DNA of 64,000 bases from a bacterium (GTDB lineage: Bacteria > Patescibacteriota > Minisyncoccia > Phycocordibacterales > UBA2100), in contig JAEUQT010000001.1 in the NCBI GenBank assembly GCA_016789445.1, forward strand, positions 1,308-65,307, read 5' to 3'. A program made the position numbers and the translations under genes. Positions 848 through 62,003 of this stretch are shown here, one piece after another. How positions within the stretch are numbered: position 1 is the stretch's first letter; each line of letters starts with the position of its first letter. The notes beneath the pieces were generated by a model that made no database searches, was not told the origin of the DNA, and saw nothing but the letters and a program-made list of their open reading frames with translations.

Positions 848-1025
848 CACGCGACCTTCGTCGCCTGCGCAGCTAGTTTTAGTGAGACGGAAGCATATTT
901 CCTTCAGCAGAAGGAAATGCTGAGTCGGGGTGGCGCAAAAATTTTTGCGACGGGAAAAATTTTATGCGTGACCGAAAACGACCATACAAAGAATGAGCCC
1001 ACCGGAAGTTGGTGGGCTCTGTAAG

Positions 1026-1289
1026 TCAGAGACGAATGCCACAGCTGGGACAATGCAGCGCATGTGCCATACAGCCCTCGAAGCGGCAATGGTGACAGGT
1101 GATCACTGCGTCAGCCGGATCCGGTTTTTCAGGTGACTGCGTCGAGACCATGCCGTGAGTCGCAGGGTCGAATTCGCGCATCTGTTCAGCCATCGAACGA
1201 CGGACCTTTTTCAGTCCCTCTTCTGCCGCGGTACGGATTCCTTCGGCGGCGTCTTGTGAACAGGCAGACGAACCGAAATATCGTGACAT
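1026..1289 (-). CDS. Hypothetical small Cys/His-rich (zinc-ribbon-like) protein
   Basis: ATG at 1289 with GGAGG 6 nt upstream, about 88 aa ending ...CHHCRFEGCMAHALHCPSCGIRL. It is divergent from the relA-like gene. Confidence 0.5.
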   Translation of the reverse strand: MSRYFGSSACSQDAAEGIRTAAEEGLKKVRRSMAEQMREFDPATHGMVSTQSPEKPDPADAVITCHHCRFEGCMAHALHCPSCGIRL

Positions 1290-1302
1290 CTCTTCCTCCG
1301 TG

Positions 1303-1331
1303 TTGGCTAGGTAGCTGCCGAGGAGTATGAT
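1303..1331 (+). promoter_or_regulatory. Sigma70-like promoter (TTGGCT-17-TATGAT) for the relA/spoT-like gene
   Basis: -35 TTGGCT, 17-nt spacer, -10 TATGAT that overlaps the first ATG of the ORF. The mRNA may be leaderless or very short-leadered, with the real start at ATG 1339. Confidence 0.45.
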
Positions 1332-2874
1332 ACACGGTATGACCCCCGTCAAATCCCTCCCCGAGATCCTGAGCGCCATGCAGAGCAAGAGCGAGGCCGA
1401 CGTCGCCTTGGTCACCAAGGCCTACCACTTCGCTGAGAAGGCCCACGAGCCGCAGAAGCGCTATTCCGGGGAGCCCTACTTCATCCACATCGCCCATGTC
1501 GGCCATTCCATCGCGGAGATCGGCATGGATGCCCAGACCATCGCCGCGGGACTCCTCCACGACACCGTCGAAGACGCGCACGTTTCCGAAGACACCATCG
1601 AGCAGGAATTCGGTACCGAAGTGCGTCACATCGTCCACGGCGTCACCAAGCTCGGCGCACTCAAATACCGCGGTATGGAACGCCATACGGAATCGCTGCG
1701 CAAACTCTTCGCCGCGACGGCGGAAGATATCCGCGTCCTCATCGTGAAGCTCCTCGATCGGTTGCATAACGCCCAGACGCTCGAACACGTCCCTGTCGAG
1801 AAGCGCGAACGCATCGCGATGGAAACGCTCGAGATCTACGCACCGATCGCCGATCGCCTCGGTATGAGCGTCATCAAGACCGAGCTCGAAGATGCCGCAT
1901 TCCCCCACGCCTATCCTGAAGAATATGAGAAGACCGTCGAGCTCCTGAAAGAACGCAAGAACGAGAACGAAAAGCGCTTGGAGAAACTGGAAAAGGACGC
2001 GAAGCGCGAACTCGCTGCCGCAGGCATGCGCGAGTTCCGCGCCGATGCACGCGTGAAAGGCATCTACTCTCTCTTCCGCAAACTGGAGCGTAAGGATTGG
2101 GACATCACGAAGATCTACGACATCTTGGCGCTGCGCATCATCGTCCCCAGCGTCGCCGACTGCTACAGCGCGCTGGGCGTCGTCCATAAGCATTGGCGCC
2201 CAGTCCCAGGCAAGATCAAGGACTACATCGCCTTCCCGAAGCCCAACGGCTACCAATCGATCCACACGACCGTGTACACGGGTGACGGCGGTGCAATGGA
2301 GATCCAGATCCGCACCGAGGCGCAGCATCGCGAAGCGCAGTTCGGCATCGCCTCACACCTCACCTACAAGGAAGTGCAGGGCTATGTCGAAGGCAAGCGC
2401 GGTGGCGGTCTCGAATGGATACGCCAATTCATCCCGCTCGGCCGCAAGACGTCTCCCGCGATCTCTCCGGAACCCGCAGAAGGCAAGAGCACCGTTCCTG
2501 ACTGGGTGAAAGATCTTGCACTAGCACACGGCGAAAGCACCGAGTATCTCGAGACCATCAAATCCGATTTCTTCACGCACCGCGTCTTCGTCTTCACGCC
2601 GAAGGCCGACGTCATCGATCTCCCACTGGGGGCTACACCTATCGATTTCGCGTACGCCATCCACTCCGAGATCGCGAATCGCATGTCGGGAGCGAAAGTG
2701 AACGGCAAGATGGTGTCGCTGGACACTCCGCTGCGCAACGGTGACATCGTCGAGATCGTCACGAAACCTGCAGGAAAGCCCTCACGTAAATGGCACGACA
2801 TCGCGAAGACGACGCTCGCGAAAAAAATGATCCGCCAAGCGCTGGCGGCACAGAATCTAAGACATCAAAAATAG
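1327..2874 (+). CDS. relA: Bifunctional (p)ppGpp synthetase/hydrolase, RelA/SpoT homolog (short form with HD + synthetase + TGS domains)
   Basis: HD motif HVGHSIAEIG...LLHDTVED, synthetase motif DILALRIIV...YQSIHTTV and a TGS domain (VFVFTPKADVIDLPLGATPIDFAY). Only 515 aa, with no ACT domain. Confidence 0.9.
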   Translation: MIHGMTPVKSLPEILSAMQSKSEADVALVTKAYHFAEKAHEPQKRYSGEPYFIHIAHVGHSIAEIGMDAQTIAAGLLHDTVEDAHVSEDTIEQEFGTEVRHIVHGVTKLGALKYRGMERHTESLRKLFAATAEDIRVLIVKLLDRLHNAQTLEHVPVEKRERIAMETLEIYAPIADRLGMSVIKTELEDAAFPHAYPEEYEKTVELLKERKNENEKRLEKLEKDAKRELAAAGMREFRADARVKGIYSLFRKLERKDWDITKIYDILALRIIVPSVADCYSALGVVHKHWRPVPGKIKDYIAFPKPNGYQSIHTTVYTGDGGAMEIQIRTEAQHREAQFGIASHLTYKEVQGYVEGKRGGGLEWIRQFIPLGRKTSPAISPEPAEGKSTVPDWVKDLALAHGESTEYLETIKSDFFTHRVFVFTPKADVIDLPLGATPIDFAYAIHSEIANRMSGAKVNGKMVSLDTPLRNGDIVEIVTKPAGKPSRKWHDIAKTTLAKKMIRQALAAQNLRHQK

Positions 2875-2910: not shown

Positions 2911-3378
2911 TCAGGCCGCGTTTTTCGCTTGCTGAAGCGAGTCGAGCCAGATCTTCGCGATATTCTTCTCCATAGTAAAGAACACGTCCTCATTCAGTGC
3001 CCACCACGCGACAGGCAACCGCGAGAACTCTTCTGCGATAAGGGCTGTACCGCGCCGACCCTTCCGGGTAATCACGGCATCAAGACGTGACACTTCCTTG
3101 GTCCGGCAATTCCTGTCGAACCACTTTTGGAGACGCAGTCCCACGGAGTCGATCATCTTCATCGGAGCGACGATGTGGAACGTGGCTTCCGTGTCGAACG
3201 CTTTTATGACGACGCTCGACATGGTTGGATTCGATGCTGACATACTCTGCCGAGCCCGAGGCAGCGCGCCGAATTCGAACTCGGCGGCACCCATGTAATC
3301 GAAACTGAGATGCTCGAGTTTCGTTACCTGAGTATGACCAGCAGCGAGCTCGAGACGTTGTACAAGCCAGAATTCCAT
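2911..3378 (-). CDS. Hypothetical protein
   Basis: 155-aa ORF in the typical coding frame, with no motif I can recognise. Confidence 0.45.
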   Translation of the reverse strand: MEFWLVQRLELAAGHTQVTKLEHLSFDYMGAAEFEFGALPRARQSMSASNPTMSSVVIKAFDTEATFHIVAPMKMIDSVGLRLQKWFDRNCRTKEVSRLDAVITRKGRRGTALIAEEFSRLPVAWWALNEDVFFTMEKNIAKIWLDSLQQAKNAA

Positions 3379-3461
3379 TCAAGCCTCCTGTATTCGAGGT
3401 TGCGATTTCAACCTCTGTTTATATTATACACTATATAAATTAATTGTCAATTCACTGGAAC

Positions 3462-4433
3462 TTAAACGGTGAAATTTCGAGCTGAGTATAGATCGTCAGC
3501 AGGTTCTTCGGGAGGCAGCAGTTCCGCCGCTATCTCCGGCGGTGTCGCTTCCTGCATCGCTTCTGCGGGCGTAAGGTCAGAGGTAACAGAAGCTTCGCGC
3601 TTCGCAATCAAATCACGCAGGTGTGCGAGATCCTCCGCAGAAAAGAATTCCACGATAAGCTTCCCCGCACCCTTCTCCTTCTTCTCGATGCGCACGCGCG
3701 TACCGAGCGAATCCGAAAGCTCCCGCTCGAGCGTGAGTAATTCCGGTGTCAGGTCGCCCTTGCGGGTCTTCTCCGTCGCGATGCGGCGCGCAAGCTGCTC
3801 GGTGTCGCGCACATTCAATCGTTTCAATTTGATGTCTTCAAAGAGCACGCGCTGCTCTTCCGGACGCTCCTGGAGCATAAGGAGCGGACGCGTATGACCC
3901 TCGGTGATCTCACCGGAGACGACCGCATCTTGGATATCCTGCGGCAGAAGGAGGATGCGGAGCGAGTTCGAGACGTATTCGCGGCTCTTACCGACCTTCT
4001 TGCCGATCTCCGCATGCTTCAGGCTGAACTGATCGACAAGCTGTTTGAATGCCTTCGCGCGATCCACCGCATTGAGATCCTCGCGCTGGAGGTTCTCGAT
4101 GATCGCGAGTTCGAGCTTCATCTGGTCACTGTCTTCCGCGCGACGGATGACGACCGGCACCTGGTAGAGACCCGCCAGTTTCGATGCGCGCAGACGGCGT
4201 TCGCCAGCGATGAGTTCGTACTCGACACGGATTCCCTCACCCGGAATCTCGGTCTCCTTACGCGTCACGGTGAGCGGCTGCAAGACGCCGTACTGACGGA
4301 TGCTCTCCGCAAGCGATGCAAGCGCCATCTGGTCGAATTCCTTACGCGGCTGGTACGGATTCGGCTTGATGCGATCCACCTCTACCCAGTAGATGGAATT
4401 GTCGTACAGCGCCTTTCCTGGAATTTCCTCCAT
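3462..4433 (-). CDS. parB: Chromosome partitioning protein ParB/Spo0J
   Basis: ParB N-terminal box KPNPYQPRKEF...GVLQPLTV...LIAGERRLRASKLAG, an HTH region and an acidic C-terminal tail. Confidence 0.9.
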   Translation of the reverse strand: MEEIPGKALYDNSIYWVEVDRIKPNPYQPRKEFDQMALASLAESIRQYGVLQPLTVTRKETEIPGEGIRVEYELIAGERRLRASKLAGLYQVPVVIRRAEDSDQMKLELAIIENLQREDLNAVDRAKAFKQLVDQFSLKHAEIGKKVGKSREYVSNSLRILLLPQDIQDAVVSGEITEGHTRPLLMLQERPEEQRVLFEDIKLKRLNVRDTEQLARRIATEKTRKGDLTPELLTLERELSDSLGTRVRIEKKEKGAGKLIVEFFSAEDLAHLRDLIAKREASVTSDLTPAEAMQEATPPEIAAELLPPEEPADDLYSARNFTV

Positions 4434-4465
4434 ATCGAGAGGATTATATCACGGTGCCGGAAGAA

Positions 4466-4624
4466 GCTCGGTCACGGATAATTTCCTCGCCGACGCTCGG
4501 GAATTTCCGCGACCCCGGCTCGCGGTCCTGCCTGCTAGCGGGACATCGCTCCGCCTTTCGAGTCTCTCACAGACAGCGCATTGGCGCTGTCTTTTCCGGC
4601 ACCGCTTTCGCGATGCTCAATCGG
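4466..4624 (-). repeat. Type-A composite structured repeat, immediately downstream of tRNA-Leu(CAA)
   Basis: Contains GACTCGAAAGGCGGAGCGATGT...CCGCGAGCCGGGGTCGCGGAAATT...ATTATCCGTGACCGAGC and the hairpin GACAGCGCcaatGCGCTGTC. It is near-identical in architecture to 19041-19196. Confidence 0.75.
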
Positions 4625-4707
4625 TGCCGGAAGAGAGACTCGAACTCTCAAGGGGTTGCCCCCGCACGATTTTGAGTCGTGTGCGTATACCATTCCGCCA
4701 TTCCGGC
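4625..4707 (-). tRNA. tRNA-Leu (anticodon CAA)
   Basis: Reverse complement reads GCCGGAATGGCGGAATGGTATACGC-ACACGACTCAAAATCGTGC-long variable arm-GAGAGTTCGAGTCTCTCTTCCGGCA, with acceptor GCCGGAA/TTCCGGC and anticodon loop cuCAAaa. Confidence 0.85.
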
Positions 4708-4800
4708 TTGTATGAAGCCAAACATCAGGATTCTAGCCTTTCTAGGCTCATTCTGCTAGGCTGCCCGAAGCCAATAGTGGCTCAAAAAGAGGTGAATAGG

Positions 4801-5544
4801 ATGCTGAAACTCGAATCGTTCCAGCGCATACTCCCCGCCTTCGACAAGAGCTCGATGCTCGTCAAAGACTACGAGCTTCTCGAGATGCTCTATCCGTTCA
4901 TCGGCGGCGTGAAGATCGGTCTGGAGGCCATCAACGCTCCGATGCCGGATCACTCGATGCATGTCGGTGACAATCTGCGGAAGTTCGTGCAGACCCGCGC
5001 CGTACCCGTGATGTGGGACGTCAAACTGAACGACATCCCCAATACGGTCGGCGGCGCAGTTGCCAACATTACGCGTAAGCGGGTGTGGGGTATCACGGTC
5101 ATGGCGAGCGCCGGTATCGACGCAGTACGGGCAGCGGTCGCTAAGCGTGCGGATGCGAATATCATCGGCGTCACGGTTCTGACGTCGATGTCACCCGAGG
5201 AGTGCAAAGCCATCTACGGTCGCATTCCAACCGCGCAGGTTTCGTATTTCGCGGAGACTCTCTTCGAAGCTGGCGCGCAGGCAATCGTCTGTTCCCCGCT
5301 CGAGCTTGAAGTCGTCCGGAAAACGATCGGCGACAAGCTGTTCTGCATCACACCGGGAATCCGTCGAAAAGACGCTCCGGCTGACGACCAGAACCGCACG
5401 ATGTCTGCAGGAGACGCCATCAAGGCGGGTGCGGATTACCTCGTCATCGGCCGCCCTATCATGGGCGCGGAGGATCCGGCGGGAGCGGCACGCGCCTTCT
5501 GCGACGAAATCGCAGCGGCAAGCGCTAACCTCTCGATGGTCTAG
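4801..5544 (+). CDS. pyrF: Orotidine 5'-phosphate decarboxylase
   Basis: AGGTGA RBS then ATG at 4801. Product MLKLESFQ...KDAPADDQNRTMSAGDAIKAGADYLVIGRPI matches OMP decarboxylase signatures. The ORF-track start at 4393 would run through the antisense of tRNA-Leu and is not credible. Confidence 0.85.
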   Translation: MLKLESFQRILPAFDKSSMLVKDYELLEMLYPFIGGVKIGLEAINAPMPDHSMHVGDNLRKFVQTRAVPVMWDVKLNDIPNTVGGAVANITRKRVWGITVMASAGIDAVRAAVAKRADANIIGVTVLTSMSPEECKAIYGRIPTAQVSYFAETLFEAGAQAIVCSPLELEVVRKTIGDKLFCITPGIRRKDAPADDQNRTMSAGDAIKAGADYLVIGRPIMGAEDPAGAARAFCDEIAAASANLSMV

Positions 5545-5640: not shown

Positions 5641-6309
5641 ATGAGTGAACAATCCGTCTGGGATACGCTCCGAGATATGGGAGCAATCCTCAAGGACGAC
5701 CACTTCGTCTACACTAAGGGCGGCCACGGCAGCGAGTACGTCAACAAGGACGCACTTTTCATGCATCCCGCGGGCTTCTCGAAACTCTGCAGCATGATCG
5801 CTGACGAGTTCCGGGATATGTTCGGGACTCCGCTTCCTGATGTGGTCCTCGGACCAGCGGTTGGCGGCGCGCTTGTCGCGCAGCAGGTCGCATACCATCT
5901 CGGCGCGAACTCTCGATCGAAGCCATTGGCTATTTACGCCGACAAGGAAGGTGATGGATTCGTCCTAAAGCGCGGATACGATGAAAAAGTGCCGGGCAAG
6001 AAGATCCTTATCGTCGAGGATATCCTCAACACCGGAGGTTCCGTGAAGCAGGTTGTCGAACTTGCACGTACGCATGGCGGCGACGTCATCGGCGTCGGCG
6101 CCATCTGCAATCGTGGCGATGTGCGCATCGTCGACATCGGCAAGCCACCGAAATTATTCAGCGTCGTCTCGACGCGGATGGTCATGTACGATTCCAGCCA
6201 ATGTCCGCTCTGTGCGGAAGGGCGACCGATCAATACCAAGATCGGCAAAGGCAAGGAATACGTCGAGAAACACGGCCAGCCTAAGGTTCCTGATTACGAA
6301 GATTCCTAA
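5641..6309 (+). CDS. pyrE: Orotate phosphoribosyltransferase-like (type I PRTase)
   Basis: AGGAG RBS then ATG 5641. PRPP-binding motif ILIVEDILNTGGSVKQVVE. It is adjacent to pyrF. Confidence 0.75.
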   Translation: MSEQSVWDTLRDMGAILKDDHFVYTKGGHGSEYVNKDALFMHPAGFSKLCSMIADEFRDMFGTPLPDVVLGPAVGGALVAQQVAYHLGANSRSKPLAIYADKEGDGFVLKRGYDEKVPGKKILIVEDILNTGGSVKQVVELARTHGGDVIGVGAICNRGDVRIVDIGKPPKLFSVVSTRMVMYDSSQCPLCAEGRPINTKIGKGKEYVEKHGQPKVPDYEDS

Positions 6310-6312
6310 TGA

Positions 6313-6348
6313 CCGCGGACGGCATCCTTGCCGTCCGCTTTTCTTTTA
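6313..6348 (+). terminator. Rho-independent terminator after pyrE
   Basis: GCGGACGGCATCCTTGCCGTCCGC followed by TTTTCTTTT. Confidence 0.7.
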
Positions 6349-6363
6349 TGCAGTATGCGGTGG

Positions 6364-7200
6364 ATGCAGAAGATAATAGTCATAGTCGGTCCTACCGCCT
6401 CGGGCAAAAGTTCCCTTGCGGTCAAGCTCGCCAAGAAACTGAAAGGCGAAGTCATTTCTGCTGATTCGCGACAGGTCTACAAAGGACTGGACATCGGCAC
6501 CGGCAAGATCACGAAAAAAGAGATGCAGGGTGTGCCGCACCACCTGCTCGATGTCGCTTCGCCCAAGAAAGTGTTCACCGCCAACGAATTCGTGGAACTC
6601 GGCCGTAAAGCGATCGACGACATCATCTCCCGCGGCAAAATGCCCATCATCTGCGGCGGCACCGGTTTTTATATCGACGCCCTTCTCGGCCGCATCGCAC
6701 TCCCTGCCGTACCACCGAATCCGAAACTTCGCGCGCAGCTCGCAAAGAAAACCGCCGCTCAGCTTTTCGCAATGCTCACAAAGCTCGACCCGCGCCGCGC
6801 AAAAGATATTGATGCACAGAATCCCGTACGCCTTATCCGTGCCATCGAGATCGCCAAAGCACTCGGTAACGTCCCCGCCTCGAAACCCGAGCCGCTTCCC
6901 TACGCAATCGAATGGATCGGCCTCAAGCCTGATGAAAAGAAACTCCGCACGAAGATACACAAACGTCTCCACGACCGCATGAAATCCGGCATGCTCCGCG
7001 AAGCAGGGCGCCTACATAACGCCGGACTCTCCTACAAGCGAATGGATCAGCTCGGTCTCGAATATCGTTACCTCGCGCTCCGTATGCAGAAGAAGATCGA
7101 CAAGGCAGCAATGCTCGAAAAGCTCGAGAACGAGATCTGGCAGTACGCGAAACGGCAGCTCACCTACTTCAAGAAGAATCCGGAAATCGAATGGCGCTAG
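6364..7200 (+). CDS. miaA: tRNA dimethylallyltransferase
   Basis: P-loop IIVIVGPTASGKSSLA..., ISADSRQVYKGLDIGT, typical MiaA length. Confidence 0.85.
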   Translation: MQKIIVIVGPTASGKSSLAVKLAKKLKGEVISADSRQVYKGLDIGTGKITKKEMQGVPHHLLDVASPKKVFTANEFVELGRKAIDDIISRGKMPIICGGTGFYIDALLGRIALPAVPPNPKLRAQLAKKTAAQLFAMLTKLDPRRAKDIDAQNPVRLIRAIEIAKALGNVPASKPEPLPYAIEWIGLKPDEKKLRTKIHKRLHDRMKSGMLREAGRLHNAGLSYKRMDQLGLEYRYLALRMQKKIDKAAMLEKLENEIWQYAKRQLTYFKKNPEIEWR

Positions 7201-7520: not shown

Positions 7521-7530
7521 GGATCGTTGC

Positions 7531-7672
7531 GGTCACAACTCTCACTCTCGCCGTAGCTCGAGTTCGGTCGCGACCCCGCCTCGTCCGTTTCGCCTACTGG
7601 CGAAACATACCTCCGGCTCCCGCAAAAGCACAAAGACAGCACGCAGGTGCTGTCTTGTGTGTATTTTGCGGG
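7531..7672 (-). repeat. Type-A structured repeat (reverse orientation) in the 3' region of the AOX-like gene
   Basis: Reverse complement reads CAAAA-ACACACAAGACAGCACctgcGTGCTGTCTTTGTGCTTTTG...ATGTTTCGCCagtagGCGAAAC-GGACGAGGCGGGGTCGCGACC...GTGACC. The same modules occur at 19684-19890. Confidence 0.7.
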
Positions 7673-7757: not shown

Positions 7758-8456
7758 TTAATCCTTAACTATCTCCCGTATCGAGGTATTGCGATGGATT
7801 ATCTCGTCGTTGCGTATGGAACGGAAGAATTCATACTGGTTACGCGGATTGCGCCCGTACCATGTTAAAAATTCTGATTCTATCGATTTCCCCTTCAATT
7901 TCTCTCCCCACGTTTCAAGAAAGCGGCTATATTGCTCGAACGCGTGGTTCTCGAACATATAGTTGAGCTCATACGACCATTTCGGATTCAGTAGGTAGAG
8001 GATGTAGGACCACCAGAAGTAGAAAAACGCGAAAAGCATCGGGATGAGGGTGTGGAGGATATACCCTGCCTTCTCGCCCTCTTTCCGTGCGATATGTGAG
8101 ATGACGACGACATGCATCGTTTCATTGTCCTGCGCGATACGTGCGTACTTAGCGATATTCGAAAGCTTCATCGCTTTCTGTTCGTCGGTATAGGTGGCGG
8201 TAAGCATAGTGAAGGCCGCCGACGCCCACGAATGATATGGGACGCGTGCAATCACCTCGACGGCGCGGAATTTGAGATACGACGGTTCGTGTCCGTAGAA
8301 CGTGTTACCGAGGATCACAAGCCACTTACCGAGAAGTTTCGGCAGGAACGCGGGTTTATAGTCGTCGTAGGGTCGCTTGTATTCCGCCAACTGATCGGGA
8401 TCATTCAGCTGCTGATTCAATGCCTCGAGATCGGTATCACCTCTTTGGAGCTCCAT
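7758..8456 (-). CDS. Alternative oxidase/plastoquinol terminal oxidase-like di-iron carboxylate protein
   Basis: Four helix motifs in AOX order: AVEVIARVP, DNETMHVVV (E-x-x-H), MFENHAFEQY (E..H) and RNDEIIHRN (D-E-x-x-H). Length 232 aa. Confidence 0.65.
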   Translation of the reverse strand: MELQRGDTDLEALNQQLNDPDQLAEYKRPYDDYKPAFLPKLLGKWLVILGNTFYGHEPSYLKFRAVEVIARVPYHSWASAAFTMLTATYTDEQKAMKLSNIAKYARIAQDNETMHVVVISHIARKEGEKAGYILHTLIPMLFAFFYFWWSYILYLLNPKWSYELNYMFENHAFEQYSRFLETWGEKLKGKSIESEFLTWYGRNPRNQYEFFRSIRNDEIIHRNTSIREIVKD

Positions 8457-8688: not shown

Positions 8689-8828
8689 TAACGAGGATCG
8701 GAAGAGAAAGCTTGCTTTCTCTTTCTCCGAGTGACGGGTTCATACGATCCTCTAGTATGGACCCTTCGGGACTGAGTATAGAACCTGGAATGCTAAGCGC
8801 CAATACGCACCACGTGCACCACTAGCAG

Positions 8829-8910
8829 ACTTTGGAAACCCTCGGTTTTCCAACGCTCGCTTCTCGCTGCCTTCCGACACGGGGAACTCCCGTTCCCCGA
8901 CCCCCTCCCG
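8829..8910 (-). repeat. Type-B structured repeat (copy B1) between rpmG and tRNA-Trp
   Basis: Reverse complement reads GGAGGGGGTCGGGGAACgggaGTTCCCC-GTGTCGGAAGGCAGCGAGAAGCGAGCG-TTGGAAAACCGAGGGTTTCCAAAG. It is paralogous to 16126-16273, 55682-55803 and 61916-62003. Confidence 0.75.
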
Positions 8911-8951
8911 CTGCAAATGGTGAGTGCACCATTCGAGCAAGCGGCAAGATA

Positions 8952-9110: not shown

Positions 9111-9280
9111 ATGTGGGCCGAAATATACCCTATATAGCGAAAGTGCGCAACTCGAAGAAAGCCAGAAAAGGGCTCAGATGCTAGGCGCTGGACAAGGGGC
9201 AGCTGAGACGTACCGAGCGTACGGTGAGGCTGAGCCGATGGCCAGCAACAACGCAGATGGGCCCTTTTCGGGCTTTCAGG

Positions 9281-9715
9281 CTAGAGGCCCAGATTGGTGC
9301 AGATATTGTTCCAAACAACATTATCCTTCAGGAGGCTGCTCATGAGGGTATCCACCACCAGCCACGCCACCATGATGACGATGAGGCCGATGGCCACGTT
9401 CCCGAAGAGCTTTTTAGCCTTATCCTTCTGGCCGATGGCCTCGTTGGAGAGGTACAACCAGCCGGCATACGCGAAAAGGAGCGCCGCGAGGAATACCGAG
9501 AGGAAGATGCCACCGTTGATGAGATTCTGCGCCAACTGGATGAGATGCTCGCATTTACAGTCCAAGCCATTGCACGGGACGATTTTGTCCGGCAAACCAC
9601 CGCCTCCCTGCTGCGCAAACGCGAAGTACGGCAGAAGGGCCACTACGGCCGGAATGAACGCGAAGATGCGCTGAAGCAACATGGCGTAAGTGTAGCATCG
9701 CCACTCTCTCCCCAT
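9281..9715 (-). CDS. TrbC/VirB2-like pilin-family small membrane protein (paralog 6, isolated)
   Basis: Signal-peptide-like N-terminus (LLQRIFAFIPAVVALLPYFAFAQQ), two hydrophobic helices and a Cys-rich loop CNGLDCKCEHL. Its architecture matches the tandem paralogs at 20580-22355. The overlapping + strand ORF 9224-9883 is taken as spurious. Confidence 0.6.
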   Translation of the reverse strand: MGREWRCYTYAMLLQRIFAFIPAVVALLPYFAFAQQGGGGLPDKIVPCNGLDCKCEHLIQLAQNLINGGIFLSVFLAALLFAYAGWLYLSNEAIGQKDKAKKLFGNVAIGLIVIMVAWLVVDTLMSSLLKDNVVWNNICTNLGL

Positions 9716-16125: not shown

Positions 16126-16273
16126 CGTGCGCAGCAGCGCACGGGCGGAGGGGGTCGGGGAACCGCCATCGGTTCCCCGTGTCGGAGAGCAGGGCGGCGA
16201 GCGAAGCGCTGCCGTCCGTTGAGAACCGAGGGTTCTCAAAACGAACCGCCGGACTGGCCGGACGGTTCGTTTC
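16126..16273 (+). repeat. Type-B structured repeat (copy B2) in the divergent intergenic region upstream of infB
   Basis: GTGCGCagcagCGCAC hairpin, then GGAGGGGGTCGGGGAACCgccatcGGTTCCCC-GTGTCGGAGAGCAGGGCGGCGAGCGAAGCGCTGCCGTCCG-TTGAGAACCgaggGTTCTCAAAA. Confidence 0.75.
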
Positions 16274-16315: not shown

Positions 16316-17809
16316 ATGTCCTCCGCTTCTACCACAACCGAACGTCCGCCAATCGTAGCCGTTCTCGGTCACGTCGATCACGGTAAGTCGACGCTGCTCG
16401 ACTACATCCGCAAGGCCAACACCGTCGCCAAGGAAGCAGGCGGCATCACCCAGCACGTCGCTGCCTACGAGGTCGTCCACGAGCGTGAGGGCAAGCTCAA
16501 GAAGATCACCTTTATCGATACGCCGGGCCATGCGGCATTCCAGGCTATCCGCGCACGCGGTGCGAAGATCGCCGACATCGCCATCCTCGTCGTCGCGGCG
16601 GATGACGGCGTGAAGGCACAGACCCTCGAAGCACTGGAGAGCATCAAGGCATCGAACACGCCGTTCGTTGTCGCTATCAACAAGATCGACAAGCCGAACG
16701 CGGATATGAGCCGCACACAGGCATCGCTTTTGGAGAATCACGTCTATCTCGAGAAGCTCGGCGGGGATATCCCATGGACAGCAATCTCCGCAAAGAGCGG
16801 TCAGGGCGTCGATGAACTCCTTGATCTCATCCTTCTCGTCGCCGAACTCTCTGAATTCAAAGCAGATCCGGATGTTCTTGCAAAAGGCTACGTCGTCGAA
16901 GCGCATCGCGATGAGAAGCGCGGCATCGCGGCAACACTCATCATCACCGAAGGCACGCTCTCGAGCGGTCAGGCGGTGCGCGCTGGCCGCGCGGTCGTTC
17001 CGGTCCGCATCATGACCGACCACAACGGGAAAGCGATCAAGGAAGCGACGTTCTCCTCTCCGGTCACGCTCTACGGTTTCGACGAACTTCCGGAAGTCGG
17101 TTCCGAATTCGTCACGTACAAGAAGAAAGGCGAAGCGGAAGCTGATAAGCCGGAAGTCGTCCGCGCTGCAAACGTCCTCGCCGAAGAAGAATCCTCGAAG
17201 TTCTTCCTCCCCGTCATCATCCGCGCCGACGTCACGGGCTCGCTTGAAGGCATCCAGCATGAACTCGCGAAGATCGGCGACGAATTCACCGGCATCCGCA
17301 TCGTACAGACCGGTATCGGCGCGGTTTCCGAAGCAGATGTGAAGGCGGCGATCGCAAGCGCCGCGACTCCCGCCGTCATCGTCGGTTTTGATGTACCGGT
17401 AGATGCGACGGCACGCGAGAGTGCGCGCCAGCACAACGTCCGCATCGAAACCTACGACATCATCTACAAACTCGCTGAGAGCCTCACCGAGATCCTCAAG
17501 GAAAGCGCCCCGAAGCGCCAGGTCGAGGAATCGATCGGTAAAGCACGCATCCTCAAGCTCTTCTCGAGCGGCAAGGGCAAGCAGACCCTCGGCGGCACCG
17601 TCTTCGAGGGCCGCTTCGAGAAGCGCACGAGCGTACGCGTCACCCGCAAGGGCGAGGAGATCGGCATCGGCTGGGTTGATAGCCTCCAGTCGCACCGCCA
17701 GAGCGCGGAACGCATCGAGACCGGCAGTGAATTCGGTGCCGAGATCGAGGCGGAGTTTGATCTCGCCCAAGGAGACGTGTTAGAAAGCTTCCGTACCAAA
17801 ACCGTATGA
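16316..17809 (+). CDS. infB: Translation initiation factor IF-2 (short form lacking the long N-terminal region)
   Basis: G-domain VAVLGHVDHGKSTLLD...FIDTPGHAAF...INKIDK, then IF2 domains II to IV. 497 aa. Confidence 0.9.
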   Translation: MSSASTTTERPPIVAVLGHVDHGKSTLLDYIRKANTVAKEAGGITQHVAAYEVVHEREGKLKKITFIDTPGHAAFQAIRARGAKIADIAILVVAADDGVKAQTLEALESIKASNTPFVVAINKIDKPNADMSRTQASLLENHVYLEKLGGDIPWTAISAKSGQGVDELLDLILLVAELSEFKADPDVLAKGYVVEAHRDEKRGIAATLIITEGTLSSGQAVRAGRAVVPVRIMTDHNGKAIKEATFSSPVTLYGFDELPEVGSEFVTYKKKGEAEADKPEVVRAANVLAEEESSKFFLPVIIRADVTGSLEGIQHELAKIGDEFTGIRIVQTGIGAVSEADVKAAIASAATPAVIVGFDVPVDATARESARQHNVRIETYDIIYKLAESLTEILKESAPKRQVEESIGKARILKLFSSGKGKQTLGGTVFEGRFEKRTSVRVTRKGEEIGIGWVDSLQSHRQSAERIETGSEFGAEIEAEFDLAQGDVLESFRTKTV

Positions 17810-18160: not shown

Positions 18161-18195
18161 GGCCACGTGGTGAAGGGGTACGAGTCTGCACAATC
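18161..18195 (+). pseudogene. Partial 5' copy of tRNA-Cys (pseudo-tRNA fragment)
   Basis: GGCCACGTGGTGAAGGGGTA-C-GAGTCTGCAcaatc matches the first ~40 nt of the intact tRNA-Cys 83 nt downstream, with a 6-nt deletion. It has no 3' half. Confidence 0.7.
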
Positions 18196-18316: not shown

Positions 18317-18372
18317 CCGTTTTTGCAAAACCGCTACTGGATGGGTGAGACGGGGTTGGGGCCCCGTCGCAA

Positions 18373-18436
18373 GGCCGGAGACGCTCGGCGTCGAGGCGGG
18401 GTCGCGGAAATTTTCAGCAGAAAATTATCCGTGACC
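18373..18436 (+). repeat. Type-A structured repeat (minimal module)
   Basis: GGCCGGAGacgcTCGGcgtCGAGGCGGGGTCGCGGAAATTTTCagcaGAAAATTATCCGTGACC. Confidence 0.75.
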
Positions 18437-18503
18437 AACTCCACCGCCTCCCCAACCATACAATTGACTAATCCTCATCCTCATTGCAGGATTCCCCTAT
18501 CCT

Positions 18504-18935
18504 ATGAAAAAAGGCTTCACCGCGGGCGCATTCGACCTCTGCCATGCAGGTCATTTCCTCATGTTTGAGGAGGCAAAATCCCAGTGCGATTACCTCATCG
18601 TCGGCCTCCATACCGACCCGACACTCGACCGACCGGACACCAAGAACAAGCCGATCATGTCGGTCGAGGAGCGCATGATCATCCTCAAGGGCATCAAGTA
18701 CATCGACGAGGTCGTCACCTACGAGACCGAGGCGGATCTCTACAATATCCTCAAGGAGAACAAACTCGGCATCAATATCCGCATCCTCGGTGTCGAATAC
18801 AAGGACAAACCGTACACCGGTCGCGACCTCCCTCTTGAGGTCTACTACAACACCCGCGGCCATAACTTCTCGACGACTGAATTACGCAACCGCGTGTACG
18901 AGGCAGAGAAGGCAAAGCGCGAGAAGGCGGCCTAG
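18504..18935 (+). CDS. Cytidylyltransferase-family protein (glycerol-3-phosphate cytidylyltransferase TagD-like)
   Basis: FDLCHAGH nucleotidyltransferase motif. 143 aa and collinear with TagD. Confidence 0.8.
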   Translation: MKKGFTAGAFDLCHAGHFLMFEEAKSQCDYLIVGLHTDPTLDRPDTKNKPIMSVEERMIILKGIKYIDEVVTYETEADLYNILKENKLGINIRILGVEYKDKPYTGRDLPLEVYYNTRGHNFSTTELRNRVYEAEKAKREKAA

Positions 18936-19037: not shown

Positions 19038-19040
19038 CAG

Positions 19041-48560: not shown

Positions 48561-48605
48561 CATGAGACACAAAACCTGCCCTGCGGCAGGTTTTGTGCCA
48601 TGTGC

Positions 48606-48762
48606 GAGCCGGAGCGATGTTCCGCCAGCAGGCGGAACCGCGAGGCCGGGTCGGGCGGCAGTTTGCGCGACGGCGCAAGCTGAATGCCTGACCACACATG
48701 AAAGACCGGCGAGACGGGGTCGCGAAAAAATTCGCCTGACGAGGCGGATTTTATTCGTGACC
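48606..48762 (+). repeat. Two tandem type-A structured repeat modules downstream of tRNA-Val
   Basis: GAGCCGGAGCGATGTTCCGCCagcagGCGGAACCGCGAGGCCGGGTCGGGCGG..., then GAGACGGGGTCGCGAAAAAATTCGCCtgacgAGGCGGATTTTATTCGTGACCGATCC. A 15-bp direct repeat TGAATGCCTGACCAC at 48681 and 48818 brackets the second module. Confidence 0.75.
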
Positions 48763-48844
48763 GATCCTTTCTGCTCCATCGCGACGGCGACGGGAATCTC
48801 TGTGACCACTGAGAATTTGAATGCCTGACCACGAGCAACTCTTT

Positions 48845-54225: not shown

Positions 54226-54326
54226 GGCGGGTATGTTTCTATTGCGGTCTTCGCAGCGCCGACGGGCGCGAGACTGAGCGCTGGGCCAGCAGGCCCAGAT
54301 AGCGACCGCAATTGGAACATATCCGC
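54226..54326. repeat. Type-C MITE-like structured repeat with terminal inverted repeats
   Basis: Termini GCGGGTATGTTTCTATTGCGG ... CCGCAATTGGAACATATCCGC. Core TTCGCAGCGCCGACGGGCGCGAGACTGAGCGCTGGGCCagcagGCCCAGATAGCGACC. Stems covary relative to copy C1. Confidence 0.75.
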
Positions 54327-55605: not shown

Positions 55606-55681
55606 TTGGTGCTTGGGACCGGGGTCGAACCGGTGACCCTTCCCTCTTCAGGGGAATGCTCTACCAACTGAGCTACCCAAG
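55606..55681 (-). tRNA. tRNA-Phe (anticodon GAA), CCA encoded
   Basis: Reverse complement reads GCTTGGG-TA-GCTCAGTTGGTAGAGC-A-TTCCCCTGAAGAGGGAA-GGGTC-ACCGGTTCGACCCCGGT-CCCAAGC-A-CCA. Confidence 0.9.
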
Positions 55682-55803
55682 CAGAATCTCCGAAAGGTTC
55701 CGGAGATTCTTTGAGAACCCTCGGTTCTCAACGGGCTATTTCGCTTCGCTCATAGCCCTGCTCTCCTACACGGGAAAACTACAGTTTTCCCGCCCCCTTT
55801 CGG
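55682..55803 (-). repeat. Type-B structured repeat (copy B3) abutting the 5' end of tRNA-Phe
   Basis: Reverse complement reads GGGGGCGGGAAAACtgtagGTTTTCCC-GTGTAGGAGAGCAGGGCTATgagcgaagcgaaATAGCCCG-TTGAGAACCgaggGTTCTCAAAGAATCTCCggaacctttcGGAGATTCTG. Confidence 0.75.
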
Positions 55804-55820
55804 GCAGACTATACCATTTC

Positions 55821-56132
55821 CTAGTTGCCCTGGAAATACTGCGGGAATTGCGCACGAAGGTTCTGAAGCGCATCGTTCAGGCCGCTCATCTGTGCCGAAG
55901 CACCGGTACGAGCGCCTTCGATCTGCGCCATGGTGTCCAGCATACTGTTCATGACTGGAGCAACGTATTGCAGATACAGCCAGAGCGGTATGACGAGGAA
56001 TGCCGCCCAGATGACGAACTTCACGATGCCGCCCCAGAACGCACTACGGCGCATCGAGCGCAGCATGCGGTTATTCTCTTTCGTGAGTTTCAGCAGCTCA
56101 TCGAGCTTATCTCCCTCGTACTCGATCCCCAT
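55821..56132 (-). CDS. Hypothetical membrane protein
   Basis: 103 aa with a central TM helix. Confidence 0.45.
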   Translation of the reverse strand: MGIEYEGDKLDELLKLTKENNRMLRSMRRSAFWGGIVKFVIWAAFLVIPLWLYLQYVAPVMNSMLDTMAQIEGARTGASAQMSGLNDALQNLRAQFPQYFQGN

Positions 56133-56133
56133 G

Positions 56134-56415
56134 CTACTTCACTTCGCAGGTTGTGCAATCCGGTTCGTGCTTTGCGGAACTTGCGAGAATGCCGAGGATG
56201 AGTGCGTTCCAGAGAAGGAAGAGCGGATCGAACTGTCCGATCGGTGCCTGCATAAGGACACTGACCCACGCGAGGATAAACGAAAGGGCGCTGAGAACCC
56301 AGAGAACCTTCCATGCCCACATTTTAGCGATGTGCATATTCATGAATCTAAACTTATGTAATAAGGGATACGGATAATGATACCCTTCCCTGCCTCTCGT
56401 GAGCGTCCTATCCAC
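56134..56415 (-). CDS. Hypothetical membrane protein
   Basis: Two TM helices. The start is probably internal (MNMHIAKMWAWKV). Confidence 0.4.
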   Translation of the reverse strand: MDRTLTRGREGYHYPYPLLHKFRFMNMHIAKMWAWKVLWVLSALSFILAWVSVLMQAPIGQFDPLFLLWNALILGILASSAKHEPDCTTCEVK

Positions 56416-59706: not shown

Positions 59707-59891
59707 AGCCGTATAATCTTATCACCCTATGAGTTTCCTCTTTCACCGAAAGACCAAGAAGGTCTTGAACGCGATCTGGGCAGTCGTCGCAGTACTCATC
59801 ATCATCAGCATGGTACTGTTCTTCGCTCCAGGCCTCGTCGACCTCATTATCTAGGCTTTCGCCCAAAAATCTCGAATCCGCGTCGTTGCGG

Positions 59892-59990
59892 ATCACGCAT
59901 AAATCGCTGGTGCGATTTTGCGTGACCCCGCCTCGCAGCCGAGCTGCTCCGGCCTTGCGACGGGGTCCCAACCCCGCCTCACCTCTGCGT
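59892..59990 (-). repeat. Type-A structured repeat (reverse orientation) downstream of lepA
   Basis: GTCACGCATAAATCGCtggtGCGATTTTGCGTGACCCCGCCTCGCAGCcgagCTGCTCCGGCC is the reverse complement of the consensus seen at 29620-29683, with a compensatory loop change. Confidence 0.75.
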
Positions 59991-60077
59991 TGCGCTCATC
60001 GTATGCTCAAATACGCTTCGCGCAACGCTTTCTCCGCGCCTAGCGGATTCGACTTTTTGACCGAAATCCGGCAAGGA

Positions 60078-61865
60078 TTACTCTTCACCACCTTTCACGA
60101 CTTTCAGGAAAACATCGTGCGGGATGTCCACCTTGCCGCGCGCGAGCATGCGCTTCTTACCCTTCTTCTGCTTCTCGAGAAGCTTCATCTTGCGGGTGAT
60201 ATCTCCCCCGTAGAGGTAGCCGGTGACATCCTTGCGCATCGCACTCTTGCGGCGCGAAGCGACGATATGGCCATCGGATTTCGCTTGGATCTTGAGCTCG
60301 AACAACTGCTTCGGGAGCAGCTTCTCGAGCTTCTCGACGAGCGACTCCGCTTCGGTACGCACACGACGCTTCGAGACGATTCGTGCAAAGGCGGGAACCA
60401 ATTCGTCCGCAACCAGCACATCGAGACGGACGACATCGGCGGTGCGCAGACCCAACAGTTCGTATGAAAGCGACGCAAAACCGGAAGAGACGCTCTTCAG
60501 GCGGTCGAAGAATCCGCGCATCAACTCACGAAGCGGCATCTCAGCGGAGAGCTTGATCTTGCCGTCGGCCAAGGTCTCGGTCTCACCCACTACGGCTTCG
60601 TGATCGAAAAGGATCTGGGTGATGCCCCCGATATATTCAGACGGCGTGATGAGCGAGATAGCCGCCCATGGCTCACGCACCGATTTGAGCGTTCCATCGT
60701 CCGGGAAACGCGCGGGATTATAGATCTCTTCCACGCCGGTGTTCGTGGTGATCTCGTAGACCGTCGTCGGCATCGTGACGACGAGCGGGAGACTGAATTC
60801 GCGCTTCAAGCGCTCGACGATGATTTCCAAGTGGAGCATGCCGAGGAATCCGCAGCGGAATCCCTTGCCCATGACGCCGCTTGATTCTTCTTCGTAGGAG
60901 AGCGACGAATCCGAAAGTCGCAATCGTTCCAATGCTTGGCGCAACTGCACGAGATCATCTTGGGATTCCGGATACACCGATGCCCAGATGACCGGCGCCG
61001 GCTGGCGGTACCCGCCGAGTGATTCCGCCGACATACGTGCGGCGACCAACGTATCGCCGACACTCGCGATACCCGGCTTCTTGATACCGGTGACGATGTA
61101 TCCGATCTCTCCTTCACTGAGGCTCGCCCGCGGTTCTTCGTCCGGAGAGAGGATGCCGACTTCAAGCGCCGTGAATGTCGCGTTCGCCGCAGCGAGTTTC
61201 AAAGAGTCCCCCTTCGCGACGCTTCCGCCGAAAAGGCGGCAATAGATGATGACGCCGCGATGATCGGAGTACGAGAAATCATAGATGAGCGCCTGCATCT
61301 TGTCTCCTGTCGCCTGTGGTGGCGGTACACGCTTCACCACGGCATCAAGCAGCTCTTTGACGCCGAGACCCGTCTTTCCTGATGTCGCCAGGATCTCGCT
61401 CTCATCGCAATTCAGAAGCAGAGCGATCTCGCTCTTCACATCATCGACGCGCGCATGCGGCGCATCGATCTTGTTCACTACGGGGATGATCACACGATTG
61501 AGCTCTCGGGCCGTCGAAAGGACGGAGAGCGTCTGCGCTTCGATGCCCTGCGTCGCATCGACGAGAAGCACGACGCCCTCGACTGCGGAGAGCGCACGCG
61601 AGACTTCGTAGGCGAAGTCGACGTGACCCGGCGTATCGATGAGATTGAGTACGTACTCGGAGCCGTCCACCTTCCAGTTCATGCGGACCGGCTGCATCTT
61701 GATGGTGATACCGCGCTCGCGCTCAAGATCCATACGATCAAGGACCTGCGCCTTCATCTGGCGCTTCTCGATGGTGCCCGTGAGCTCGAGCATGCGGTCG
61801 GCCAGGGTCGATTTCCCGTGGTCGATGTGCGCTATGATCGAAAAGTTTCTGATATGTGAAGACAT
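60078..61865 (-). CDS. lepA: Elongation factor 4 (LepA)
   Basis: MSSHIRNFSIIAHIDHGKSTLADRMLELTG, G-domain, EF-G-like domains and the LepA C-terminal domain. 595 aa. Confidence 0.95.
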   Translation of the reverse strand: MSSHIRNFSIIAHIDHGKSTLADRMLELTGTIEKRQMKAQVLDRMDLERERGITIKMQPVRMNWKVDGSEYVLNLIDTPGHVDFAYEVSRALSAVEGVVLLVDATQGIEAQTLSVLSTARELNRVIIPVVNKIDAPHARVDDVKSEIALLLNCDESEILATSGKTGLGVKELLDAVVKRVPPPQATGDKMQALIYDFSYSDHRGVIIYCRLFGGSVAKGDSLKLAAANATFTALEVGILSPDEEPRASLSEGEIGYIVTGIKKPGIASVGDTLVAARMSAESLGGYRQPAPVIWASVYPESQDDLVQLRQALERLRLSDSSLSYEEESSGVMGKGFRCGFLGMLHLEIIVERLKREFSLPLVVTMPTTVYEITTNTGVEEIYNPARFPDDGTLKSVREPWAAISLITPSEYIGGITQILFDHEAVVGETETLADGKIKLSAEMPLRELMRGFFDRLKSVSSGFASLSYELLGLRTADVVRLDVLVADELVPAFARIVSKRRVRTEAESLVEKLEKLLPKQLFELKIQAKSDGHIVASRRKSAMRKDVTGYLYGGDITRKMKLLEKQKKGKKRMLARGKVDIPHDVFLKVVKGGEE

Positions 61866-61915
61866 ACATTACGCAGTGTACAGAAGCATGGACTTGAGAG
61901 CGCACATTGTTCGAA

Positions 61916-62003
61916 AGGGGTCGGGAAAACTGTAGTTTTCCCGTGGAGGAAGGCAGGCCGCTGTGCGGCCGTTGGAAACCGTGGGTTTCCAAGGAGCCGT
62001 GGT
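61916..62003 (+). repeat. Type-B structured repeat (copy B4) inserted between the lepA start and a duplicated lepA 5' fragment
   Basis: GAAAGGGGTCGGGAAAACtgtagGTTTTCCC-GTGGAGGAAGGCAGGCCGCtgtGCGGCC-GTTGGAAACCgtggGTTTCCAAGG. Confidence 0.75.

Follow-up and report, generated by a model that had tools for sequence, protein, structure and literature searches.

The genomes of Patescibacteria rank with the most compact of all known ones, and the usual view is that they are poor in mobile DNA. What, in such a genome, are the small structured repeats that recur between the genes of contig JAEUQT010000001.1, of which a stretch of 64,000 nucleotides (the window) was analysed here? The initial annotation of this stretch had listed 15 intergenic intervals as a modular family of types A, B and C, with hairpin stems that change in a compensatory way, and had placed the repeats next to tRNA 3' ends. 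The analyses described below led to the reading that the repeats may be a non-autonomous, structure-dependent mobile element that targets the T-loop DNA of tRNA genes and is moved by an enzyme encoded elsewhere, and to this reading we give about an even chance of being right.

Repeat families of the window

Repeat finding and an all-against-all comparison of the intergenic regions recovered the families described before. The window contains 11 copies of type A, four of type B, two of type C and three to four of a module D. Together the cassettes occupy ~2.3 kb of the ~9.4 kb of non-coding DNA in the window, roughly a quarter. A covariance model built from seven window copies of type A found all 11 copies with no false extras (seven long, three short and one 5'-truncated), and the type-B covariance model gave exactly four matches, the four B copies. 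The 24-base type-A pattern CGAGNCGGGGTCGCGN{16,40}TTATNCGTGAC matched the window five times, compared to none in 100 shuffles. The two copies of type C shared 89% identity across 58-62 nt and carried inverted termini, in accordance with the terminal inverted repeats described before.

The described sequences were present in 15 of the 15 intervals, and types A, B and C proved real; the list was incomplete in that module D had been overlooked. Two intervals indeed hold type A, not as the single copies reported: 19684-19890 contains two tandem copies, and 48606-48762 one full and one 5'-truncated copy. The hairpin reported at 893-920 exists (at 897-918) and is helix P2 inside copy A1, not a hairpin in front of it. 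The four hairpins quoted in the initial annotation are all found in the sequence, and its shared AGCAG-type loop agrees with AGCA being the commonest loop of the window's perfect hairpins (eight on the plus strand, seven of these within intergenic repeats).

With Rfam 15, applied at gathering and permissive thresholds to the whole window and one cassette, only tRNAs passed, the weak matches being generic hairpins; the repeats match no family of that collection. A full-text literature search found no description of these repeats, an unindexed publication being possible. Structured interspersed repeats are a known kind; the type-A family itself matches no Rfam family and no description found, and in this sense it is undescribed, as had been supposed.

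The G+C content of the window is 52-60%, and it encodes 13 tRNAs next to small housekeeping genes. Homologues of the protein encoded at 18504-18935, at 75-80% identity, carry the label Candidatus Kaiserbacteria; the affiliation of the window is Kaiserbacteria-like, and the guess of a bacterium of the Patescibacteria or candidate phyla radiation (CPR) type was right. The cumulative GC skew falls steadily along the whole window, which is therefore probably a single replichore.

Fold and covariation of the type-A core

Type A is read here in the strand that gives G.U instead of A.C. From 5' to 3', the core consists of GNC (P1), GGA-P2 hairpin-GAG, GN'C (P1), GGG, and then P3, which reads GUCGCG-N-A-AAUUU.. 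loop ..AAAUU-[A]-U-N'-CGUGAC. P1 has 3 bp, the P3 hairpin 16-20 bp and the core unit 70-135 nt, with the conserved strings GGAG..CGAG..GGGGUCGCG..UUAUNCGUGAC and no GTAG head. The N/N' pairs covary freely both in P1 (CG 48, GC 30, AU 13, UA 7) and in P3 (GC 48, CG 30, AU 17), whereas at the fourth P3 pair 99 of 100 copies have G.U. The conserved unpaired nucleotides are the GGA/GAG internal loop, the GGG linker and a bulged A in P3, 8 nt from the type-A 3' end (GUGAC).

In long copies, P2 is closed by an AGCA loop and P3 by a cGACGg loop, and the two loops are exchanged in the short subtype (18369, 29616, 59886); type C has each loop type once, a long outer stem enclosing both hairpins. A further hairpin, M0, precedes many of the long copies. 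Its CUGC loop is complementary to GCAG in the P2 loop, and its sequence is conserved between window 48568-48597 and a distant genome (L103). The short copies and those of Elusimicrobia begin with GGUGAG(G)-hairpin-GCAAGG.

The seven long units of the window have a mean column identity of 70%, and their common fold comprises 32 pairs, 21 of them with compensatory changes, so that the window copies alone already bear out the claim of compensatory stems. Covariation was further evaluated on 102 distinct type-A copies from 80 other genomes, in an alignment fitted to the covariance model, with 500 shuffles and with slid partners as a second control. Paired cells reached 96.3%, compared to 73.7% in shuffled alignments and 28-49% with slid partners; 30 of the 32 pairs were doubly changed (shuffled 20.2, slid partners 13-20); and the covariation score was 0.412 (shuffled 0.113, slid partners at most 0.071). 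None of the 500 shuffles reached the observed values. These statistics uphold a modular structured family with covarying stems. Outside the invariant wobble, G.U exceeded A.C by 56:16, indicating that the type-A fold is preserved in one strand. It is thus kept in a single strand, RNA or single-stranded DNA, and covariation alone cannot say which.

The main rival of the mobile-element reading, which we rate as rather unlikely, is a cis-acting RNA transcribed with the tRNA or the upstream gene. It would serve as a tRNA-like processing, stability or termination signal (like the t-element) or, alternatively, as a switch based on antisense pairing with the tRNA 3' half or with a downstream decoy copy, and it would have spread through recombination, not through dedicated transposition. 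The invariant G.U, the excess of G.U over A.C in one strand, the conserved unpaired GGA/GAG loop, GGG linker and bulged A, and the complementarity of the M0 loop (CUGC) to the P2 loop (GCAG) all point in its direction.

Junctions with tRNA genes

A tRNA gene lay within 400 nt on the 5' side of 51 of 116 type-A copies, and all 51 were co-oriented with it; 40 extra loci gave 46 co-oriented and 8 opposite cases. At least 15 tRNA isoacceptor types adjoin type A. In 23 of 45 close cases, an exact repeat (≥10 nt) of the tRNA's own 3' end directly followed GUGAC, typically 19 nt long, from T-loop C56 through the discriminator, and at times continuing through trailer and terminator. The bases after the type-A 3' end were CGA in 45 and CAA in 10 of 110 copies, both being T-loop variants. 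The observation that the repeats adjoin tRNA 3' ends was therefore correct, and the junction proved specific, at T-loop position 55/56 with a duplicated tRNA 3' end. Because the stretch from C56 to the end is present on both sides of the insert, an intact tRNA gene is kept. The length of the target duplication at types A and B is variable, from 3 to ~50 nt.

An antisense copy of the same tRNA end, from at least 8 to ~22 nt long, was present between tRNA and core in 16 of the 45 cases and is often interrupted by the CUGC hairpin. This segment can pair either with the downstream sense copy, as in the fold of L022, an acceptor-plus-T-stem mimic of -83.9 kcal/mol (z = -8.2), or with the real tRNA end, as in the fold of window copy A5 (-112 kcal/mol, z = -10.5). 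Since antisense and sense tRNA ends flank the core, the core takes the place of the 'T-loop' in a mimic of the tRNA acceptor and T-arm. Type-B cassettes are ordered as tRNA, ..GAAGUGAG, antisense tRNA end, core and diverged sense copy, and A and B cassettes have one layout: leader ..GAAGUGAG, antisense tRNA end, core, sense tRNA end.

The stability of this outer stem, as a mimic of tRNA acceptor and T stems with z-scores of -8.2 and -10.5, and the co-orientation of copies with tRNAs again favour a cis-acting RNA. However, at least one third of the tRNA-linked cores lie behind a hairpin and U-run, a hairpin that the element itself can bring, and the Elusimicrobia copies are mostly antisense to the tRNA. 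Simple open reading frame (ORF) calls gave 21 co-oriented and 14 opposite protein genes, which lends no support to a general sense bias of 3' untranslated regions outside tRNA contexts, and B4 is antisense to both of its neighbours. The lack of a protein-gene sense bias, together with the cores behind terminator-like hairpins, indicates that co-transcription with the tRNA is not required. In the window, six type-A copies lie on the plus and five on the minus strand within one replichore; orientation is set by the target, not by replication.

The sense-antisense-sense order of tRNA 3' ends, with junctions at hairpin loops and an inverted repeat that is often continuous with the terminator stem, could also arise by passive template switching during replication at hairpins, as inverted triplications between T-arm and terminator palindromes, the compensatory changes then coming from palindrome correction and not from selection. 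We consider this extremely improbable, as it leaves unexplained the conserved 70-135 nt core with its conserved unpaired bases and cross-phylum identity, the asymmetry of G.U over A.C, the tRNA-free copies, and the conserved leader and CUGC hairpin within the antisense segment.

In the window, A4 separates T-loop nt 55 from nt 56 exactly, in an older fragment of tRNA-Cys of the type found in the related contig L004. The Elusimicrobia copies are mostly convergent with the tRNA and abut the antisense T-loop, GUGAC being followed directly by UCGAAC. From the junctions of Patescibacteria and Elusimicrobia together, the common junction is the palindromic TCGA of T-loop DNA. Near A4, a 5' fragment of tRNA-Cys was noted at 18161-18191, ~50 nt upstream of the intact tRNA-Cys, and likewise in L004 at 6059-6085; a stray tRNA-Leu-like 3' fragment (CGAGTCCTTCTCCCGGCAG, 19223-19241) lies beside the YunG-family gene and is unlike both nearby tRNA-Leu genes.

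A precise 3' junction at C56 with duplications of variable length is also what an RNA-mediated retroelement resembling short interspersed nuclear elements (SINEs) would produce. In that scenario, a tRNA-minihelix 'tag' at the transcript end starts reverse transcription, and target-primed synthesis at a T-loop nick makes the 3' junction precise and leaves the 5' junction and the duplications variable. The one 5'-truncated copy, the microhomology at the A4 5' junction (GGGTG / GGUGAG) and the strand-specific G.U, which points to an RNA form, are consistent with it. The scenario is nevertheless distinctly unlikely: no reverse transcriptase was found in the window or recurrently near copies in 80 loci, a published survey reported no group II introns in Patescibacteria (PMC13011429), 3'-truncated copies occur too, and the origin of the internal antisense segment is not accounted for.

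Turnover between strains

Contigs from other samples (L-numbered) that cover the matching tRNA sites, with a neighbouring cytidylyltransferase 90-95% identical to that of the window, differed from the window and from each other in whether a site was filled and with which type (Table 1). The comparison of orthologous sites suggested in the initial annotation thus revealed variable presence at single sites.

Table 1. State of the site downstream of three tRNA genes in the window and in related strains
Strain	tRNA-Cys	tRNA-Leu(UAA)	tRNA-Lys
Window	A-short	A-long	inverted, two A copies
L004	B	empty	empty
L130	not covered	empty	A-long
L134	B	A-long	A-long
L133	A-short + partial B	A-long, opposite strand	not covered

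The L134 insert at tRNA-Leu(UAA) starts right after the discriminator and ends with GUGAC; behind it come the tRNA end, in a decayed copy, and the trailer as in L004. At tRNA-Lys of the same strain, the insert starts at the discriminator and includes an M0 hairpin of its own, and GAC and the old terminator come next. The 148-nt B2 block upstream of infB is lacking as a whole at the matching site of L004. A7 was inserted between the last sense codon and the ancestral stop of an S1-domain gene and supplied a new stop, while the site is empty in L004.

Two Elusimicrobia genomes contain a 129-nt type-A copy in frame at different positions of homologous P-loop ORFs. These inserts, at ~690-835 in L084 and ~3620-3750 in L035, lie in P-loop ATPase-like ORFs with a GGPGTGKS motif, and one of the pair adjoins a Walker-B-like VDE motif. 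Spurious ORFs also translate the element itself, such as ..PRRGRGKPLCGLSVT.. in Elusimicrobia loci. That close strains dispense with copies, and that copies occur in frame within ORFs and in tandem arrays, speaks against the cis-acting RNA.

The interval between tRNA-Leu and tRNA-Lys is a strain-variable integration hotspot, as compared in the window (19039-19973), L004 (6852-7044), L130 (657-851), L131 (657-2117) and L134 (8104-8499). In the window it carries a YunG-family gene with low G+C at third codon positions (low GC3; 19252-19641, minus strand). In L131, an island of ~1.3 kb includes a truncated ORF resembling large serine recombinases, together with a zinc-finger ORF of 209 aa. Compared with three other strains, the window and L131 have the tRNA-Lys gene in inverted orientation.

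Such a hotspot, with the serine-recombinase remnant of L131 and the low-GC3 YunG gene of the window, is among the observations that would fit integrase scars, that is, small integrative elements recombining in the tRNA T-loop, the A and B cores being parts of attachment regions. Integrases of T-loop sublocation, as Williams reportedly described in 2002, leave direct repeats of the tRNA 3' end that begin in the T-loop, and both such repeats and partial tRNA-Cys duplicates are present here. We regard the proposal as very improbable: the repeats are just 100-250 nt apart with no integrase between them, every copy would need the 3' end of its own local tRNA, with at least 15 isoacceptor types involved, some copies are not at tRNAs or lie within ORFs, and RNA-like covariation of the core is unexpected of attachment-site arms.

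Distribution across genomes

A search for the type-A pattern across 185,579 species genomes gave at least 120 loci. Among the matches listed, every taxonomically labelled record was Patescibacteria/CPR or Elusimicrobia, and some metagenome-assembled genomes (MAGs) were labelled just 'bacterium'. The CPR labels among these matches were Kaiser-, Taylor-, Nomura-, Yonath-, Zambryskii-, Lloyd-, Harrison- and Adlerbacteria, Paceibacterota, Minisyncoccia, Parcubacteria, Peregrinibacteria/Peribacteraceae and Saccharibacteria-labelled MAGs. Type A is therefore found in many Patescibacteria classes and in Elusimicrobia and is not peculiar to one reduced genome, as had been thought possible. The covariance model recovered 105 type-A copies in the first 80 of the listed loci and 69 in the other 40, often several within 8 kb and at times in tandem arrays. 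In L103, tandem arrays of [M0 hairpin + type-A core] with a period of ~132 nt directly follow tRNA-Arg genes (three units at 3030-3460, two at 6270-6540).

About 40 core nucleotides of type A are nearly identical between the two phyla. No match was obtained in the viral, phage and plasmid collections IMG/VR, INPHARED and PLSDB, which gave no support to a phage or plasmid vehicle. The near-identity needs either a conserved recognising factor or horizontal transfer via an unseen vehicle, and a core conserved in two phyla with no vehicle found is a further point for the cis-acting RNA. Type B was found only in Kaiserbacteria-like loci, and types C and D only in this strain, as a BLAST search of ~0.9 Mb of related loci gave no match to either.

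A proposed mobile element aimed at tRNA T-loops

The mobile-element reading builds on the observed structure, junctions, duplications, gain and loss between strains, tandem arrays and restricted cross-phylum distribution. The cassettes would form a modular family of small (about 70-200 nt), non-autonomous elements with a fold preserved in one strand. Type-A copies show a preference for tRNA genes, within or at the 3' end of which they lie. Their own 3' end is joined to T-loop C56 within the palindromic TCGA of T-loop DNA, and the tRNA gene is preserved by duplication of its 3' end (C56 onward, in some cases including trailer and terminator). An enzyme acting in trans and encoded elsewhere may recognise the T-arm target and the element's folded single strand, be it DNA or RNA; the covariation would then reflect selection for being mobilised, and termination or insulation effects on neighbouring genes would be by-products. 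Mobility is supported by the empty sites, the strain-variable fillings, the tandem arrays, the truncated copies and the in-frame ORF insertions, and mobility at the DNA level is argued for by the unbiased orientation to protein genes, the antisense position of B4, the antisense copies of Elusimicrobia, the cores behind terminator-like hairpins and the presence of window copies in both orientations within one replichore.

Several points weigh against this reading. A Pfam scan of the window ORFs, covering 64 kb of the genome, detected no transposase, integrase/recombinase, HUH nuclease or reverse transcriptase, and no enzyme family recurred within 1.5 kb of copies in the 80 loci; the mobilising enzyme is hypothetical. 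With no vehicle found, a core common to two phyla is explained equally well by a conserved host function and by horizontal transfer. The variable duplication (3 to ~50 nt) and the internal antisense end of the local tRNA match no standard transposition mechanism, the comparison of filled and empty sites cannot formally separate gain from precise loss, and the fitting of the covariation alignment to the covariance model is a caveat on its statistics.

Several candidate mobilisers were rejected. The ORF clusters shared among the 80 loci were housekeeping genes and spurious translations of the element, the gene between A5 and A6 encodes a YunG-family protein and not a transposase, and no A or B core lies beside the serine-recombinase remnant of L131. 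Target-primed copying, template switching and integrase attachment each cover part of the evidence only.

A more specific proposal, which we consider unlikely, makes use of the internal antisense tRNA end as guide or template. In a programmable tRNA-homing element, this copy, which a conserved hairpin splits, would serve a hypothetical enzyme that nicks T-loop DNA at 55/56, inserts a copy of the element and restores the tRNA gene in the process; alternatively, the minihelix-plus-core RNA would act as a regulated switch of tRNA maturation. If true, the tRNA-homing element would be a new nucleic-acid-guided or tRNA-templated mobile kind, common to Patescibacteria and Elusimicrobia.

Comparison with known systems

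The family behaves like structured repeats of the REP/BIME, RPE and MITE type, yet it fails the defining tests of each. Repetitive extragenic palindromes and bacterial interspersed mosaic elements (REP/BIME), with their REP-associated tyrosine transposase (RAYT, TnpA-REP), are likewise high-copy extragenic structured repeats with mosaic combinations, compensatory stems, intergenic placement and possible mobilisation in trans by one enzyme. However, a REP is a single imperfect palindrome of 20-40 nt with a 5' GTAG, is lineage-specific and flanks a RAYT gene, whereas type A is a three-helix unit of 70-135 nt in two phyla, placed at tRNA T-loops with target duplication and with no GTAG. The search for a cognate RAYT/IS200-like gene, which had been suggested, found none among the ORFs of the 64-kb window and none recurrent within 1.5 kb of copies in the 80 loci.

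Rickettsia palindromic elements (RPE) are comparable as structured units of ~100-150 nt with no known transposase that occur between genes and in frame (here in L084 and L035), but they show no sequence relation, are restricted to one genus and are without T-loop targeting or tRNA-end duplication. Miniature inverted-repeat transposable elements (MITEs; Correia/NEMIS, Nezha, ERIC), mitochondrial GC clusters and repetitive hairpin elements (RHE), of which those of sponge are an example (PMC2800124), are also small, non-autonomous, hairpin-forming and strain-variable in compact genomes. MITEs have fixed terminal inverted repeats, a short fixed target duplication and a recognisable insertion-sequence origin, whereas in types A and B the outer inverted repeat is the local tRNA sequence, specific to each site, and the duplication ranges from 3 to ~50 nt; type C has inverted termini in its two copies only.

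Integrative elements of T-loop sublocation share with the cassettes the direct repeat of the tRNA 3' end from the T-loop (23 of 45 copies) and the retention of an intact tRNA. They measure kilobases, carry their own integrase and use one fixed tRNA 3' end, in contrast to cassettes of 100-250 nt that contain no ORF or gene and occur at many different tRNAs. The palindrome-associated transposable elements (PATEs) derived from IS200/IS605 and the class C group II introns resemble the family in needing folded single-stranded hairpins and inserting beside hairpin targets, which for the class C introns are terminators. The likeness of type A to group II introns (5' GUGAG, 3' ..AC, bulged A 8 nt from the 3' end) is superficial, and a group II ribozyme would by far exceed the cassettes in size. 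Domain V/VI of these introns (RF00029) was not found in the window scans, and a focused scan gave 12.7 bits against a cut-off of 40, in a different part of the cassette; nor did any model match a group I or II intron fragment. A paper on tRNA introns of Patescibacteria describes group I introns of the anticodon loop and does not mention these repeats (PMC13011429). IS200/IS605 elements (PATE) make no target duplication, insert 3' of a fixed tetra- or pentanucleotide and are oriented by replication strand, whereas type A has duplications and lies in both orientations (six plus, five minus), the fixed T-loop TCGA junction being the only shared trait.

Integron attC sites have the core sites R''/R', RYYYAAC ... 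GTTRRRY, and adjoin an integron integrase or a cassette array. The type-A stem bases are GGUCGCG / CGUGACC and the neighbours are housekeeping genes on both strands, and an attC identity was rejected. TIGR (tandem interspaced guide RNA) arrays and IS110 bridge RNAs were also rejected. They lie by a Tas or IS110 recombinase gene, as a tandem array or at an element end, and carry two short guides for opposite DNA strands (TIGR: PMC12045711), whereas the present copies are dispersed, have no associated gene and have antisense halves that match the same strand of the tRNA gene. A hammerhead-like reading of CGAAAC in A5 failed because the string is not conserved in other copies, and the XerCD/dif-like appearance of P3 (GGTCACGCATAA vs GGTGCGCATAA) was judged coincidental, since its middle position covaries freely.

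Coordinates of the cassettes and neighbouring genes

The cassettes of the window and their parts are given in Table 2.

Table 2. Cassettes, modules and associated tRNA-derived segments of the window (core, match of the type-A covariance model)
Feature	Positions	Strand	Core	Context and parts
A1, diverged type-A long core	881-978	+	881-978	downstream of topoisomerase-I C-terminal gene; 81.3 bits; P2 hairpin 897-918
A2 cassette	4453-4622	-	4465-4560	after tRNA-Leu(CAA)
A2 antisense tRNA 3'-end copy	4557-4568 + 4594-4603			hairpin between halves
A2 sense tRNA 3'-end copy	4453-4470
A3, type-A long core + upstream M0 hairpin	7526-7672	-	7526-7622	M0 with CUGC loop 7619-7672; no adjoining tRNA
A4, type-A short copy	18324-18451	+	18369-18441	directly after intact tRNA-Cys
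A4 target, older tRNA-Cys 3' fragment	18324-18347 + 18436-18451			halves split at T-loop nt 55/56
A5 cassette	19039-19196	+	19101-19196	after tRNA-Leu(UAA); leader AGAUUGAGC..; site empty in L004 and L130, filled in L134
A5 antisense tRNA 3' end	19057-19067 + 19091-19104			hairpin between halves
A6a + A6b, tandem long cores + M0 hairpin	19665-19899	-	19761-19856 (A6a), 19665-19760 (A6b)	downstream of inverted tRNA-Lys
A7, type-A short copy	29598-29688	+	29616-29688	just before ancestral stop codon of S1-domain gene
A8a, M0 hairpin + core	within 48562-48767	+	48603-48698	after tRNA-Val; M0 hairpin 48568-48597
A8b, 5'-truncated type-A copy	48699-48767	+	48699-48767	behind A8a
A9, type-A short core	59886-60050	-	59886-59958	5' module GGUGAGG-hairpin-GCAAGG; D module 59961-60050 precedes
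B1, type-B core	8826-8915	-		between rpmG and tRNA-Trp; 85.8 bits
B2	16126-16272	+		AGCA-loop hairpin 16126-16143; type-B core 16140-16245; 3' hairpin 16239-16272
B3	55683-55808	-		type-B core 55705-55808; T-arm-like palindrome 55683-55710; immediately upstream of tRNA-Phe
B4, type-B core	61906-61998	+		between lepA and murJ, antisense to both
C1	31986-32103	+		long outer stem around one GACG-loop and one AGCA-loop hairpin
C2, second type-C copy	54226-54326	+
D module (..TAGGCGC..GAGACGTACC..GGTGAGG..)	9171-9265	+
D module	40206-40300	+		3' part recurs as fragment 35666-35689 (-)
D module	59961-60050	-		precedes A9 core

The small rpmG gene for ribosomal protein L33 (8952-9110, minus strand), which lies upstream of both B1 and tRNA-Trp, is too short for the ORF length cut-off and was found only by reading the sequence. 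The longest ORFs 4393-5544 (plus strand, OMP-decarboxylase) and 55656-56201 (plus strand, hypothetical) span a tRNA and repeat cassettes, and their true starts therefore lie further downstream. The initiation factor 2 (IF-2) gene (16316-17809, plus strand) has a product of just 497 aa, which is therefore without the long N-terminal region. Small paralogous TrbC/VirB2 and type IV secretion system (T4SS) pilin-like genes occur in runs at 20563-22355 and 9281-9715 (both minus strand), in a cluster that is kept in related strains. The protein encoded at 7758-8456 (minus strand) showed a weak match to an alternative-oxidase (AOX) domain (37.5 bits), unexpected for CPR.

Significance

About a quarter of the non-coding DNA in 64 kb consists of structured cassettes that turn over between strains. 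Type A crosses phyla, covaries as strongly as accepted RNA families, has no Rfam match and stands in a precise relation to the T-loop, the most conserved sequence of every tRNA gene. If type A is mobile, there would be an unrecognised mobilising enzyme and a way into tRNA genes that does not destroy them; if it is a functional RNA, a new and widespread class with a link to tRNA 3' ends would be at hand. In both cases, the family accounts for local rearrangements at tRNA hotspots, can mislead gene callers through spurious ORFs, and provides a marker of strain variation in uncultured lineages.

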